The notes below the pieces were generated by a model that was not told where the DNA came from, ran no database searches, and saw only the letters and a list, made by a program, of their open reading frames with translations. Shown here piece by piece: positions 4,412-8,629 of a stretch of 64,000 nucleotides of DNA; within the stretch, counting starts at the first letter, position 1, and every line of letters begins with the position of its first letter. Origin of the DNA: Abditibacterium sp. (GTDB lineage: Bacteria; Armatimonadota; Abditibacteriia; Abditibacteriales; Abditibacteriaceae); assembly GCA_965199495.1 (NCBI GenBank), contig CBDASK010000003.1, forward strand, positions 1,888,001 to 1,952,000, given 5' to 3'. The position numbers and the translations under genes are program-made.

Positions 4412-5422
4412 TTACATTCCGTTGTTCATCATCGTGCCGTTGCTATTCATCATGGTGCCGTTATCCATAGCGCCATTATTCATCGTACCGTTGTTCATCA
4501 TGGCGCCGTTGTCCATAGTGCCGCCCATGTTATTGGTCATGTTGTAGGGCATATAACCCATCGAGTTGGTTTCGGTGCTCAAGTCTTTGGGCGGCTTGCC
4601 ACCTAAAAAGTTGATGTTGAAACCAAGCAGTGGTTTGCGGTTCGACATAACCTTGCCAAAGCCCAAGGGGCCAAGCGTTTGGCCATTCACCGAAATGCTA
4701 TTGGCAGCCACGCGCTTATCGAAGGGGCTGACAACACCGTAAAGCGGGGACTCTTCGTAGCCGCGAACAACGATTTCAGAGTTAGCCAGCAACGGCGTAA
4801 TGCCGGTGGGCGAAGTCGAAGCCTGCACCAAACGGTTGGAATCCGGGACGCGCACCAAAGTTTTGTTATCCAGAACCAGACCCAAAACTTCGCCGTTCAT
4901 CGGGTCGGCCAGATAGCCGGTCAATTTGCCCGACAAAGTCATCTCTTTGGTACCGATTTGAATGTAGGGCGTGGCCTTCAAAACGTCAATCGGGCTGATG
5001 TTGGACGGCATCATCATCGTGGACGGAGTGGGCATATCGGGGCCAACGCCAGCCAAATCATAGTTGGTCATTTTGCCCATCATGCTCGAAGTTACGTAAA
5101 CGCTGGCGCTCGATCCAACCGGATAAAGCGCGGTCACGCGCTGCGCCATCGAAGGCGAAAAGCGCACCATTTTGACGCCATCGGCGGTTTGCACGTCCAT
5201 CGCGCTGACGTATCCGGCGCGATCCACGTAATAATTCTGCACGGTGCCCGAAACCATCATCGGCATCATCGTCGGCGTAGTCATGGTCGAGTTCATCATC
5301 GAACCATCGTTCATCATCGTGCCGTTGTCCATCATCGAGCCCTGCGCCTGAACGCCCGTAGCGCCAGCGAAAGCCATCGCGGTCATTGCAGTTCCAATTG
5401 TCAGTTTCTTGAGTAGTGTCAT
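4412..5422 (-). CDS. Secreted Met-rich protein with M(D/N)NG(T/A)M repeats at both ends
   Basis: Start MTLLKK at 5422 after a GGAG RBS; signal peptide ending VQAQ; repeats MMDNGTMMNDGSMM and MDNGAMMNNGTMNNGAMDNGTMM. Confidence 0.8.
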   Translation of the reverse strand: MTLLKKLTIGTAMTAMAFAGATGVQAQGSMMDNGTMMNDGSMMNSTMTTPTMMPMMVSGTVQNYYVDRAGYVSAMDVQTADGVKMVRFSPSMAQRVTALYPVGSSASVYVTSSMMGKMTNYDLAGVGPDMPTPSTMMMPSNISPIDVLKATPYIQIGTKEMTLSGKLTGYLADPMNGEVLGLVLDNKTLVRVPDSNRLVQASTSPTGITPLLANSEIVVRGYEESPLYGVVSPFDKRVAANSISVNGQTLGPLGFGKVMSNRKPLLGFNINFLGGKPPKDLSTETNSMGYMPYNMTNNMGGTMDNGAMMNNGTMNNGAMDNGTMMNSNGTMMNNGM

Positions 5423-5541
5423 TTTATTTTCTCCGTGAGGATTTTCTGCCGTCTCACACTTTAATTCTTTTAAAATAAAAGTGCAAGCGACAAGTCGGTT
5501 GAGGTGACTTGCAAATGGAAGACCAATTGCGGATGCCGAAA

Positions 5542-6258
5542 TTACACTCCGCGTTTGTTGCCCCACAGCAAAACGTGGAGTTGCGGCGTCAGCGTCACGT
5601 CGAACCACTTCTCCCGCGCGCACCGTTCCAGCAACCACTCCAATTTTTGCGTCAACGCGGCGTTGTCGGCGTTCTGGCCAGTCATCACCGAATCGTTGCC
5701 GATGGATAAATAAAATGGCACATCAGAATGCAACTCGTAAACGCGGCGCGCGAACCCGAAATCGGCTTCATCGAATACGACAATTTTAATCGAAATCTGC
5801 GTATTTTTCGTTCCGCCGCGCGCGATTTCCAGACAGCGCGCCAAATTTTCCGCCGAAAACTCCATTTTCGACGACGGCGGCTTGGGCGACAAAACCAGAT
5901 GATCCAATTCGCCCAACCAATCGGGCGCTTTGGACGCCTGCGTTTCGAGCGCGAACGTGTGTCCGCGCGCGTGTCCGATTTCCAACAGCTCGCGCAGTGG
6001 CTGCAACGCTGGGTTGCCGCCCGAAAGCGTGATTAGAATCGGTGCGCCGCCGCTCAACCGTTCGACTTCTTCGAGAATTGCGGGCGCACCCATTTTTGTC
6101 CAATCGCTTTTGTGTTCGGGCAAAACAGCGTAAAGCGTATCGCACCATTGGCAACGAAAATCGCAGCCACCGGTGCGCACAAAAACCGTCGGGCGCCCGA
6201 TGAGCGCGCCCTCGCCTTGAATCGTTGGGCCGAAAATTTCGGAAATTAAAATCGACAT
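5542..6258 (-). CDS. queE: 7-carboxy-7-deazaguanine synthase (radical SAM)
   Basis: EIFGPTIQGEG, CDFRCQWCDT (CxxxCxxC), SGGNP, LSPKPPSS, PQLHVLLWG. Confidence 0.93.
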   Translation of the reverse strand: MSILISEIFGPTIQGEGALIGRPTVFVRTGGCDFRCQWCDTLYAVLPEHKSDWTKMGAPAILEEVERLSGGAPILITLSGGNPALQPLRELLEIGHARGHTFALETQASKAPDWLGELDHLVLSPKPPSSKMEFSAENLARCLEIARGGTKNTQISIKIVVFDEADFGFARRVYELHSDVPFYLSIGNDSVMTGQNADNAALTQKLEWLLERCAREKWFDVTLTPQLHVLLWGNKRGV

Positions 6259-6280
6259 TGGCTGAACTTGATACTTTTAG

Positions 6281-6300
6281 TTTGACGAGAACACGTCAAA
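6281..6300. promoter_or_regulatory. Perfect palindrome TTTGACG-N6-CGTCAAA between queE and the divergent RAPP leader; putative operator or back-to-back -35 boxes
   Basis: tttgacgagaacacgtcaaa; TTGACG at 6282-6287 is followed 18 nt later by CATACT (6306-6311). Confidence 0.45.
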
Positions 6301-6317
6301 TAGAGCATACTCCCCCG

Positions 6318-6758
6318 GTGCATAATAATTGGGGCAGAATCTGGCTAAGCGCGGCGTTATTGCTGTTGTCCGGCCTGTCGTCGCCCCTGACGTGGCTGGC
6401 CTCGGCGGCTCCGTCACCATGCGCGATGCCGTGTTGTTGCCCGCAAGCAGCGATGGCAGCAGCCACGCCGTACGCACCGTGTTGCCAAATGCAGCCCGCG
6501 CCGTTGCCAATCGGCGTCGCGATTGTCGCTCCGGCGCGCGCGAGTTGGAGCAAAGCGTCGCTCGACGCGATTGCCGCTCCCGCGATTGCCGTTTCCACGC
6601 CGAAATTCACTTTTACTGCGTCTGCGCCGCTAATTTTCCCCGCCGAATCCGCAATTTCTCCATCTAATGCGGCGGAGCGGCGGATTTATTCTTGTCGCGC
6701 TCCACCTGCAAATGGCGGACATTTACTAACGCTTCAAGAAGGAGGAAAACTCACATGA
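6318..6758 (+). CDS. DUF2946/CruR-like leader: hydrophobic N-terminus, Cys clusters, RAPP motif
   Basis: WLSAALLLLSGLSSPLTWLA, CAMPCCC, PCCQM, Ala/Pro linker, SCRAPP (codons 6696-6707); in-frame GTG at 6318 chosen as start (uncertain). Confidence 0.6.
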   Translation: MHNNWGRIWLSAALLLLSGLSSPLTWLASAAPSPCAMPCCCPQAAMAAATPYAPCCQMQPAPLPIGVAIVAPARASWSKASLDAIAAPAIAVSTPKFTFTASAPLIFPAESAISPSNAAERRIYSCRAPPANGGHLLTLQEGGKLT

Positions 6759-6853
6759 TTATCGAACTCACCGTAATGGCGTCCGATTGCTGCGAAGGTT
6801 GCGGCGGAAGCTGCTCCGACGGCACCTGCACTTGCAACTGCTGCGGCAAATAG
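6755..6853 (+). CDS. Metallothionein-like peptide MIIELTVMASDCCEGCGGSCSDGTCTCNCCGK (32 aa, 8 Cys)
   Basis: Translated by hand; AAGGAGG SD at 6739-6745; ATG 6755 overlaps the upstream TGA (ATGA); TAG at 6851-6853; followed by a terminator. Confidence 0.8.
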   Translation: MIIELTVMASDCCEGCGGSCSDGTCTCNCCGK

Positions 6854-6865
6854 GCCCACACAACT

Positions 6866-6905
6866 CAACGCCTCGCAATCCAAAAGATGCGGGGCGTTGT
6901 TTTTT
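6866..6905 (+). terminator. Intrinsic terminator after the metallothionein-like ORF
   Basis: caacgcctcgca...tgcggggcgttg followed by a T-run. Confidence 0.7.
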
Positions 6906-7428
6906 AGTTCAGCAAATCGCGTTGCCGCAAAAATTCATGCAACGGATGAGCGGGCGCCGTATGGGCGGCGACGGCTTGAGCAAAGCCGCGCGGGTCTCGC
7001 AAAATAAGAGGAATTGAAATACGTTTGCCGTTTGCCATCGAAATGACAGCGTAGGGCAAAAAGAACCACTTGAGTTCGACACCAACGATTTGCGACCATA
7101 CAAATTCGCGCCACGCAAACCATCTGTCGAGAATAATAATTCCTTGGGCGCTTACCTCAACTGACAGCGCCCACATAAAGCACAAACACAATAAAAGTTC
7201 CGTCGCCGTCAGGAGAGCTATCGCAGTGACCATCGCCATATAAAAATCAGCCGTGCGGAACATAAACACCGGGCGAATCATAACTCCAATCACAATGGCC
7301 GAAGGCACCACGACTTGAAGAAATACGGCGAAGAAATACGGCAGAAATCGGCGTTGAAACTTCAGAACTCCACCCGCTTCGGGTTGGCTTTTCTGTGTTT
7401 CGTGCGGATCGGCGATGGGCGGTTTCAT
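6904..7428 (-). CDS. Membrane protein (2 TM + soluble C-terminal domain); paralog of 7432-7959
   Basis: Two hydrophobic segments; REFVWSQI; IPLILRD...HPLHEFL. Confidence 0.65.
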   Translation of the reverse strand: MKPPIADPHETQKSQPEAGGVLKFQRRFLPYFFAVFLQVVVPSAIVIGVMIRPVFMFRTADFYMAMVTAIALLTATELLLCLCFMWALSVEVSAQGIIILDRWFAWREFVWSQIVGVELKWFFLPYAVISMANGKRISIPLILRDPRGFAQAVAAHTAPAHPLHEFLRQRDLLN

Positions 7429-7431
7429 CGC

Positions 7432-7959
7432 TCAAGTTTCGTCATTCTCAAAGAACGCGCGCAACGCGCAAGTCGGCGGCGCCCACTGCTTCACCAAACT
7501 TTCAAATTCGCCTTGTTCGCGTAAAAATAGCGGAAGCCAGATGATATTACGACAGTTCGGCGTCGAGAGCCGGGCGAATCGCGTAAAAAATAGCCAGCGA
7601 ATTGGCGCGACTTTGACGATTTCGTCCCACGAAACCTCGCGTGCTTGTCCCCAGAAGTTACGCGCGCGCAGACCGTTTTGGTTGACGATAACCGGAAAAC
7701 AGCGCGAGACAATCGCTGCCACCAAAACACCGCCGACCGCGATTTTAAGCGCCAACAACAACGCGAAGACAAAGCGCAAATGGCTCGGCCCCTGCCACAA
7801 CAGTAGCAACAGCGGCCACGCGCCCGGCACGGTTTGCGACAACGCGAACGGTGTGAATTCCAGCCGAAACGCGCGCCCGGCAAAACCGCCGCGCGGCGCG
7901 AGCGCGCGATAAATCGCGGGGCCAATCGAATTTGCTCGCATGAAAATTGGGGCCGACAA
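7432..7959 (-). CDS. Membrane protein; paralog of 6904-7428
   Basis: Hydrophobic segments; REVSWDEI; LPLFLRE...CALRAFF; abuts queC. Confidence 0.6.
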   Translation of the reverse strand: MSAPIFMRANSIGPAIYRALAPRGGFAGRAFRLEFTPFALSQTVPGAWPLLLLLWQGPSHLRFVFALLLALKIAVGGVLVAAIVSRCFPVIVNQNGLRARNFWGQAREVSWDEIVKVAPIRWLFFTRFARLSTPNCRNIIWLPLFLREQGEFESLVKQWAPPTCALRAFFENDET

Positions 7960-7960
7960 T

Positions 7961-8629
7961 TTACGAGTAAATCGTCGGGTCGCTCACGCCCGCATCGCGA
8001 AACGCTTCGATGCGTTCGACGCACGTCCCGCATTTACCGCAGTGCAAAGAGCCGCCTTCGTAGCAGCTCCACGTTTTCTCGAACGGCACGCCCAGACGCG
8101 CGCCCTCGCGCACGATGCCAGTTTTATCGGTCTGGGTAAAGGGAGCGTAAAGTTCCAGATCGGGCGCGCCAAAACCTTGATTGGCCAATTTTTCCATCTG
8201 CTCGAACGATTCGATAAACGCCGGGCGGCAATCGGGATAAACGAAATGATCGCCGCCGTGAACGCCAATCGCCACACAATTCGCATTACACGCGACCGCC
8301 GCGCCGTAAGCCAGCGCCAGAAAAATCGCGTTGCGATTGGGCACAACCGTAATTGACATATTGGGCGCCGCGTAATGTCCGTGCGGTACCGCGATATTTT
8401 CATCCGTCAAAGCCGAGCCGCCGATGAGCCTGCCGAAATTACTCAAATCAACGATGTCGAAATCGGCACCTAAATCTTGCGCGCAAACACGGGCAAATTC
8501 GAGTTCTTTACGGTGTTTCTGTCCGTAATCGAAGGCGAGCAGATGCAAATCATAACGTTGCGAATGGAGCGAATAAGCGAGCGTGACCGAATCGAGGCCG
8601 CCCGAAACAATGGCGATGGCGCGTGGCAT
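7961..8629 (-). CDS. queC: 7-cyano-7-deazaguanine synthase
   Basis: SGGLDS, FDYGQKH, VPNRNAIF, YPDCRP, TWSCY, HCGKCGTC. Confidence 0.95.
   Translation of the reverse strand: MPRAIAIVSGGLDSVTLAYSLHSQRYDLHLLAFDYGQKHRKELEFARVCAQDLGADFDIVDLSNFGRLIGGSALTDENIAVPHGHYAAPNMSITVVPNRNAIFLALAYGAAVACNANCVAIGVHGGDHFVYPDCRPAFIESFEQMEKLANQGFGAPDLELYAPFTQTDKTGIVREGARLGVPFEKTWSCYEGGSLHCGKCGTCVERIEAFRDAGVSDPTIYS

Follow-up and report, generated by a model that had tools for sequence, protein, structure and literature searches.

A CutF/CruR-like leader linked to a small metallothionein-like ORF in Abditibacterium: a candidate nascent-chain metal switch

Introduction

Does a self-contained locus of less than 600 nt in Abditibacterium sp. 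hold a metal switch worked by a stalling ribosome and, if so, in which direction would it turn? The locus lies at positions 6318 to 6905 of the 64,000-nucleotide stretch analysed here (the window). The initial annotation read it as a RAPP arrest-type leader coupled to a small Cys-rich peptide, release of the stall carrying ribosomes to the overlapped start of the peptide ORF, and noted that this would invert the CruR logic. An inverted logic had already been published for CutF of Rhodobacter capsulatus, in which copper prolongs the stall, opens a stem that covers cutO's Shine-Dalgarno sequence (SD) and turns on this detoxifying gene (PMC9973294; bioRxiv 10.1101/2025.02.05.636593). In CruR, copper relieves the stall (PMC9426467), and why it should release one stall but prolong the other is stated as an open question in the CutF papers. 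Among 5,334 catalogued CutF-like proteins, some overlap the gene downstream, which in most of these cases encodes nitrous-oxide reductase or its regulator (PMC9973294). PMC12992588 analysed RAPP and RGPP as a pair of motifs; its toeprint of CruR located the ribosomal P and A sites at the two Pro codons.

On the side of the target, few bacterial metallothionein families are known, among them the SmtA type and MymT (PMC7558416). The word metallothionein is absent from the main texts of PMC9973294, PMC9426467 and PMC12992588 and from the available parts of the supplements of PMC9973294 and PMC12992588. No publication joining metallothionein with DUF2946 was found, and searches for RAPP and ribosome stalling together with metallothionein returned general reviews alone, in a mostly non-subscription literature in which a listing in neighbour tables is possible. 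The sensor type and the metal-ON logic are already known. Undescribed in the literature searched are the class of target, its occurrence in secreted and cytoplasmic form and this lineage's overlap; nor did we find there a publication on the pairing, as the initial annotation had supposed.

Results and Discussion

Anatomy of the leader ORF

All features listed by the initial annotation (leader, Cys clusters, RAPP, 16 trailing codons, ATGA, 8-Cys ORF, SD and terminator) were found where it had placed them. The leader ORF, a CutF/CruR-like putative arrest peptide (6318..6758, + strand), starts with GTG, encodes 146 aa and ends with TGA at 6756-6758. Residues from about 9 to 29 are hydrophobic, with a peak 13-residue hydropathy of 2.15, and a hydrophobic N-terminal region is kept in the three close leaders compared. 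With regard to the cleavable Sec signal in the rules for CutF-like proteins, a hydrophobic stretch and an Ala-x-Ala end mark a putative Sec signal peptide over residues 1-30 (6318..6407, +), which ends in Ala-Ser-Ala and would presumably be cleaved. Cysteines stand at residues 35, 39-41, 55-56 and 126. The cluster C35-x3-C39-C40-C41 with C55-C56 (6420..6485, +), 70-86 residues ahead of RAPP, is a putative metal or redox sensor, and its P38-C39-C40 columns are invariant in an alignment of six leaders that is gappy in this region.

The S-C-R-A-P-P codons (6690..6707, +) form the putative arrest motif, with RAPP at 6696-6707 (residues 127-130 of 146) and 16 codons between it and the stop. SCRAPP is invariant in the 6/6 aligned leaders; two further leaders, from genomes G014 and G007, have RAPP and RGPP, respectively. 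The Ser codon is TCT in 7/8 leaders of the module defined below, TCT being a 6% codon in this genome, and the first Pro codon of RAPP is CCA or CCT in 12 of 13 leaders (eight modules and five paralogues) against a genome usage of 18%. CCA or CCT is nevertheless not required at this position because relatives in three of four sequencing runs have CCG: their contigs carry 6704 A>G and 6707 T>C, both synonymous. As a check on chance, the 732 six-frame occurrences of R[AG]PP in the genome were filtered for a hydrophobic stretch, Cys/His and a short tail; seven passed, six of which look like real leaders. The leader is under coding-type selection, with pN/pS of 0.49-0.63 in 5/5 pairs (uncorrected, the protein-based alignment biasing the ratio down).

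The initial annotation had likened the leader to DUF2946 proteins, of which it is not a member: neither it nor six homologues match the profile (PF11162), and the highest score genome-wide, 10.4 bits where the cut-off is 23.7, belongs to a paralogue. The leader has no Pfam, NCBIfam or PDB-sequence match either, and its ESM Atlas score of 0.95 against unnamed clusters of 112-134 aa is a lead only. By analogy it would be CutF/CruR-like in its working, yet it falls outside the DUF2946 profile, lacks CXXC and narrowly misses the PP-position rule. Under the CutF-like rules set out in PMC9973294, it is shorter than 150 aa (146), contains CxxxC (C35-x3-C39), has no annotated domain and is followed by a same-strand gene within 1000 nt (here overlapping); its PP, at 129-130 of 146 as in genome G004, lies just outside the last 15 residues, within which PP falls in 5/8 modules. 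The C-proximal RAPP expected of DUF2946 leaders is present at residues 127-130, and R[AG]PP is found in 8/8 modules.

Like CutF-cutO, the locus combines a small leader, putatively exported, that carries CxxxC and a proline motif at its C-terminus and stands directly before a gene that could plausibly serve against excess metal, with a predicted stem between stall site and ribosome-binding region (PMC9973294). It differs in having RAPP instead of PPP, 70-86 instead of the 45 residues discussed for CutF between Cys and motif, and a 32-aa Cys-rich peptide instead of a multicopper oxidase as target (PMC9973294); moreover the leader does not match the DUF2946 profile, the stem barely touches the SD and the leader stop overlaps the target start. 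CruR (Bp2923), encoded ahead of bfrG in Bordetella pertussis, resembles the window leader in its length of about 145 aa, in an export signal (putative in the latter), in having a Cys motif and a RAPP close to the C-terminus, and in being encoded by the first gene of the transcript (PMC9426467; arrest in PMC12992588), whereas the window leader is without CXXC and has its RAPP 16 residues from the end rather than three (PMC9426467). CXXC, replaced in the window leader by C35-x3-C39, CCC and CC, is present in the leaders of G001, G005, G006 and G009. The locus also lacks the 162-nt intergenic region of cruR-bfrG, and its target is no TonB-dependent importer (PMC9426467). In SecM, ApdA/ApdP and other RAPP/RGPP arrest peptides, too, a small secreted protein carries R[AG]PP close to its C-terminus and is encoded ahead of a gene on the same strand; the window target is neither a Sec/YidC component nor a TonB receptor, YcnI, PCu(A)C, PepSY, DsbA or thioredoxin (PMC12992588).

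The small Cys-rich ORF

The leader TGA overlaps the ATG at 6755 (ATGA) of a Cys-rich ORF of 32 aa without signal peptide (6755..6853, +). With 8 Cys in its last 21 residues (25% Cys overall) and no Phe, Tyr, Trp or His, the peptide fits the description of metallothioneins as small, Cys-rich (CC, CxC, CxxC) and aromatic-free. It looks like a metallothionein and would presumably bind metal, yet it matches no family: Pfam, NCBIfam and PDB searches gave no match, and the SmtA/BmtA profile PF02069 found nothing in the peptide, in four homologues or anywhere in the genome. The best ESM Atlas score (0.78) and an AlphaFold2 model (pLDDT 59, pTM 0.23) were uninformative. The peptide is 83% identical in G004, a genome of the same genus, and 78% in P0004, a third signal-less peptide known as a protein alone; all eight Cys are kept in 3/3 signal-less peptides. 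Its pN/pS is 0-0.49 in 5/5 pairs and 0.39 against G004 (uncorrected, with the same downward bias of a protein-based alignment). A genome census of SD-led ORFs of 20-75 aa with at least 6 Cys in the last 32 residues returned three distinct Cys-rich ORFs, the two besides the 32-aa ORF being of CxxC type by eye.

An AAGGAGG SD (6739..6745, +) precedes the peptide ORF, and SDs of this type stand ahead of the peptide in 8/8 modules. Downstream lies an intrinsic terminator (6866..6905, +) made of a hairpin (6866-6899) and a run of 6 U. Its hairpin has a folding energy of -21.5 kcal/mol (z -5.0), and none of 200 shuffles was as stable; a simple terminator scan did not list it. Strong hairpins occur 3' of the peptide in all six modules folded.

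SmtA/BmtA (PF02069) and mycobacterial MymT resemble the window peptide in being very small, 25% Cys in its case, and easily missed by annotation (PMC7558416). The window peptide differs from them in having no profile or PDB match, no His, no aromatic residue and a shorter chain, and in that most of its relatives bear predicted Sec-type signals and that it stands under a translational leader. Expression of SmtA and MymT is governed by transcriptional repressors. Csp1/Csp3 set a precedent for a Cys-rich metal store that exists both as an exported and as a cytosolic protein, although Csps are four-helix bundles with Tat signals and the present family has Cys-rich domains of 20-35 residues with Sec-like signals or none (PMC7558416). 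If the peptides do bind metal, a family with both secreted and cytoplasmic forms would widen the bacterial metallothionein set.

A family of leader-peptide modules

We defined a module as a leader with R[AG]PP followed 58-85 nt later (Arg codon to ATG) by a small Cys-rich ORF, the genome of the window being G000. A class-wide pattern requiring nothing beyond CRAPP codons followed by an SD and an ATG matched 6/31 class genomes, and a reversed-pattern control none. In each of the six matches, a leader with signal and Cys ending in SCRAPP precedes a small ORF that encodes 7-11 Cys, and a hairpin resembling a terminator comes next. Profiles added two modules, that of G007 (RGPP) and that of G014, which belongs to another genus and whose module follows two P-type ATPases, one with an HMA domain. 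The module is hence present in 8/31 class genomes, 7/13 of the genus and 6/17 of the well-completed genomes, and was not found in the other 6/13 of the genus. The small Cys-rich ORF is linked to a CruR/CutF-type leader in 8/8 modules, the spacing from Arg codon to ATG staying within 58-85 nt, so the linkage proposed by the initial annotation holds across the family. In G004 both orthologues lie side by side, with a leader 54% identical to that of the window, and contigs from 4/4 sequencing runs of four studies bear parts of both ORFs on one record. The peptide ORFs are short enough for annotation-based surveys of RAPP or CutF-like leaders to miss.

A signal peptide predicted in most relatives of the 32-aa peptide had escaped the initial annotation. 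Peptides of 6/8 modules have a signal-like N-terminus (peak hydropathy 2.25-2.57 against 1.76 in G000 and 1.45 in G004), as do three more peptides from the protein database. Whether the signal-less peptides descend from the secreted ones is unsure on present comparisons: hhalign of the two groups gives a probability of 59% over 18 columns, and profiles of the nine secreted peptides did not report the 32-aa peptide in the window's genome. Similarly, a leader profile built without G000, G004 and G014 found no match in the window's genome at default filters; with G014 included and filters off, the window leader ranks second (E 0.044). The direction of signal loss is not fixed by the leader tree because the tree is mostly unresolved, with good support only for the signal-less group and for G005+G006.

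Searches of 401 genomes of the phylum gave weak matches alone outside the class (E 7e-4 or worse), the leader search scoring nine candidates per genome. A screen of 12 weak loci (L096-L098, L115-L119 and L128-L131) found no qualifying leader; five loci inside long ORFs (L094, L095 and L099-L101) lay outside this screen. Metagenome scans by protein (178 pattern matches, none confirmed) and by DNA pattern (53 loci, no credible peptide gene) were likewise negative, and a pattern scan of a genome collection returned the G004 locus as its single match. One further candidate, P0003, was rejected as a chance match in a repetitive 1479-aa protein.

Other RAPP leaders and the nature of the signal

The same genome encodes five more leaders with signal, Cys/His and RAPP and with tails of 1-3 codons, near 463676(-), 495164(+), 4052864(+), 4312377(-) and 4606019(+) (L132-L136). 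They precede OEP-HlyD efflux operons (two), a redoxin/AhpC-TSA gene (one) and cupredoxin-domain genes (two); for one of the two efflux operons an ACR_tran gene was scanned. Both OEP and AhpC_TSA appear among the neighbour classes that PMC9973294 and PMC9426467 name. The leader at 495164 groups with that of G014 (support 83/89), which heads a Cys-rich peptide instead; since the two leaders group and their targets differ, leaders and targets may have been swapped over time. The interval from the leader at 495164 to the cupredoxin gene holds, at about 495470-495780 (L132), an ORF of some 103 aa whose start is signal-like and which has four Cys.

The signal read by the leader might be the periplasmic thiol redox state or Sec/Dsb capacity rather than a metal, leader disulfides supplying the pull and the product being a disulfide-bonded mini-protein or redox buffer. 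Periplasmic cysteines are normally oxidised, and the signal-like N-termini of 6/8 peptides would place them there. RAPP/RGPP leaders precede DsbA and thioredoxin genes as well (PMC12992588), one paralogue here precedes a redoxin gene, and the CutF preprint discusses disulfides as a release force (bioRxiv 10.1101/2025.02.05.636593). However, the window peptide has no signal and keeps all eight Cys, which fits metal-thiolate binding in a reducing compartment, the Cys counts of the peptides vary from 6 to 11 and are odd in 3/8 modules, and the G014 module adjoins heavy-metal-type ATPases. We consider a redox signal improbable.

A predicted stem ahead of the start codon

A stem is predicted at 6689..6740 (+), with a 5' arm over the S-C-R codons (6689-6699), an inner hairpin and a 3' arm (6730-6740) that extends into the SD by two bases. 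All 8/8 modules have a predicted duplex that joins the codons before and at the Arg to a region ending 15-29 nt before the ATG, but G000 and G004 are the only ones in which it reaches the SD; its end lies 21-29 nt from the ATG, and so outside the SD, in the six others. Relative to the SD-shielding stem of the CutF-like rules, which the stalled ribosome opens, the duplex is predicted in 8/8 modules, its SD contact is limited to 2/8 and its computed effect is small. Changes on both sides of the duplex occur at several positions, e.g., C-G to T-A at R+2 in G007 and G014, an apparent covariation that is inflated since the partners were picked for each genome; nor are the related genomes independent. 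Individually the stem is weak, with z -0.51 in the window, shuffle p of 0.125 in the window and below 0.05 in 3/8 modules, and synonymous-recoding p of 0.165 in the window and 0.05 or less in 3/6. Masking the footprint of a stalled ribosome raises the mean unpaired probability at -35..-1 in 7/8 modules; at -20..-1 it raises accessibility clearly only in G000 (0.41 to 0.63) and lowers it in G004, G005 and G006. The computed gain in SD opening on stalling is 0.6-1.6 kcal/mol in the window, 0-1.4 in G004 and inconsistent or absent in the others. Rfam gave only three sub-threshold matches.

The initial annotation had instead pointed to a complementarity of TCCACCT, within the RAPP codons, to AGGAGGA at the SD. 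The 6/7 complementarity between 6701-6707 and 6740-6746 is literally there, but it is not the dominant predicted structure: this pairing is part of the lowest-energy fold in one of five window lengths (the shortest) and in none of five for the G004 orthologue. It was therefore rejected as the main structure, and in three runs relatives have changes by which it is weakened. A 4-bp CTCC:GGAG pairing is still possible in 4/8 modules, weaker than the SD pairing predicted for the two efflux paralogues, in whose best fold the Pro codons pair with the following SD (-7.8 and -9.2 kcal/mol).

We tentatively propose, with a confidence somewhat short of even, that the locus is a stall-ON switch of the CutF kind and that the metallothionein-like peptide under its control, itself undescribed, is cytoplasmic in this lineage. 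The transcript, of two genes and probably leaderless, would work like the CutF-cutO switch. The leader would be exported co-translationally, its Cys cluster, 70-86 residues back, already lying outside the membrane once the ribosome reaches RAPP. Without metal, export or folding would pull the chain through and little peptide would be made, a basal amount in this lineage perhaps coming via the ATGA overlap. A thiophilic metal on the Cys cluster, most likely copper and possibly zinc or cadmium, would lengthen the stall; the stalled ribosome would cover the 5' arm of the stem and free the region before and at the SD, and the strong SD could then initiate many times per stall. The resulting peptide, small and Cys-rich, would bind metal and would be secreted by most relatives but stay in the cytoplasm here. 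What the sequences show is anatomy, conservation, selection of a coding type and linkage; translation, export, stalling, signal, direction of control and metal binding are inferred. The linkage recovered by the CRAPP pattern, the duplex in 8/8 modules, the opening at -35..-1 in 7/8, the short tails in 5/8, the interchange of RAPP and RGPP, the P-type ATPases ahead of the G014 module and the paralogues ahead of known neighbour classes argue for this stall-ON model. The weakness of the stem, its SD contact in 2/8 modules, the small computed opening, a Cys-RAPP spacing above the 45 residues of CutF and the weak homology to the secreted peptides argue against it. In addition, the ATGA overlap would also deliver ribosomes on release, which would blunt such a switch.

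As in CruR, a stall under metal shortage might protect or open the downstream ORF, and metal would release it and shut expression off by Rho termination or mRNA decay, the peptide being a scavenger or chaperone. The motif is a true RAPP as in CruR, where it arrests in vitro (copper is unmentioned in the part of PMC12992588 available), C exceeds G in the 100 nt before RAPP in 5/6 modules, and secretion of most relatives would suit scavenging. Yet the spacer, 47-73 nt from the end of RAPP to the ATG, is short against the 162-nt intergenic region of cruR-bfrG (PMC9426467), the downstream ORF is tiny with its own terminator, the C-richness follows from the Pro/Ala codons and no uptake genes were seen beside the modules inspected. 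Control of this CruR type seems to us rather unlikely.

Leader tails and the stop-start overlap

The tails after the motif measure 16, 16, 3, 3, 5, 33, 2 and 2 codons in the eight modules. An overlap conserved as in translationally coupled pairs is not seen: ATGA occurs in 2/8 modules, confined to the signal-less pair G000 and G004, and 5/8 leaders stop 2-5 codons past the motif, 37-64 nt before the ATG. A third arrangement is found in G009 (L106, 1165-1617), whose leader continues for 33 codons after RAPP and so shares 37 nt with the beginning of the peptide ORF. The short tails in 5/8 modules fit a stall that opens a stem and not reinitiation; with the overlap in only 2/8, they do not support coupling on release of the stall, as put forward in the initial annotation, as the family mechanism.

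For the sub-lineage of the window alone, such coupling deserves separate consideration: the leader would stall by default, metal would release it, and ribosomes would run through 16 codons, opening the stem on the way, to reinitiate at the ATG that the leader stop overlaps. G000 and G004 agree both in the overlap and in the tail length of 16 codons although their tails are read in different frames, one base fewer early in the tail being offset by one more after the SD. The third close leader, P0005, also known as a protein alone, has a 6-codon tail after RAPP, and an alignment with G004 places an out-of-frame TAA of the window (6727..6729, +, closing an ORF at 6667-6729) in the register of the P0005 stop, the seventh codon after RAPP; G004 has CAA there. 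This TAA is a probable relic of an older, shorter leader end, and the simplest history suggests that a 6-codon tail was escaped twice, each time ending at ATGA, which by our estimate would happen in about 1 in 9 cases if only frame matters. A double origin of ATGA is weak support for coupling in this sub-lineage, and purging of other read-through outcomes (fusion or overlap with the peptide frame) explains the repeated ATGA as well, without selection for coupling. Release-dependent reinitiation would agree with a stem that reaches the SD only in these two genomes and with the copper-relieved stall of CruR (PMC9426467). Against it stand the six of eight modules that have no overlap, the 6-codon tail of so close a homologue as P0005, one X3 contig with deletions in the tail and the presence of a strong separate SD, which pure coupling does not need. 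An assembly error behind the 16-codon tail was ruled out, as the tail is spanned gap-free by contigs from runs X2, X3 and X6. Overall we regard release-dependent reinitiation in this sub-lineage as unlikely.

A -1 frameshift fusing leader and peptide was also rejected: the frame is open across RAPP in both genomes, but chance expects this, and no shared slippery site was seen by eye.

A broader version of the same idea, which we hold to be a long shot, is a rewired unit of an undescribed metallothionein-like family under a nascent-chain metal sensor, in which the export signal was lost, the SD moved into the stem and the leader tail twice extended to overlap the start. Sensing outside the membrane would then pre-emptively make a cytoplasmic chelator by release-coupled reinitiation, a logic shown for neither CruR nor CutF. 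Being self-contained, under 600 nt and naturally available with short, overlapping and overrunning tails, the module offers a compact test bed for the evolution of stall direction and output wiring.

Promoter and genomic surroundings

A sigma-70-like promoter (6282..6311, +) precedes the leader, with a -35 box TTGACG, an 18-nt spacer and a -10 box CATACT (6306-6311); the promoter scan found two sites against 0.8 +/- 0.9 in shuffles. The -10 box ends 6 nt before the leader GTG, and a -10-like hexamer has the same spacing in 3/6 modules printed (G000, G004 and G001), for which reason the mRNA is probably leaderless. A perfect inverted repeat (6281-6300, 7-bp arms and 6-nt spacer) lies over the -35 box, within the 59-nt gap that separates the divergently oriented starts of queE and the leader. 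It might serve as an operator or represent two -35 boxes placed back to back, and is not kept in G004.

The switch may, finally, have degenerated in this lineage, both ORFs still being translated but the peptide made constitutive by the read-through tail, or control having moved to transcription. Loss of the peptide signal, the frame changes in the tail and the patchy presence of the module (not found in 6/13 genus genomes) are consistent with decay, and the inverted repeat could supply the operator. Against decay stands an invariant SCRAPP, in whose codons solely synonymous changes are listed among relatives, and the repeat is not kept in G004; we judge a degenerate switch unlikely.

The neighbourhoods of the module differ in other genomes. 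In the window it lies antisense inside a minus-strand run (5542-8629) of queC, two bacterial-PH-like genes and a queE-like radical SAM gene, the PH and radical SAM matches falling below cut-off, and read-through from this run would cross the module. A long ORF (4412-5638, -) that follows queE directly, at a distance of some 700 nt from the module, has a signal-like segment and Met/Asn-rich repeats near both ends, with no Pfam match above noise. Met-rich tracts can bind Cu(I).
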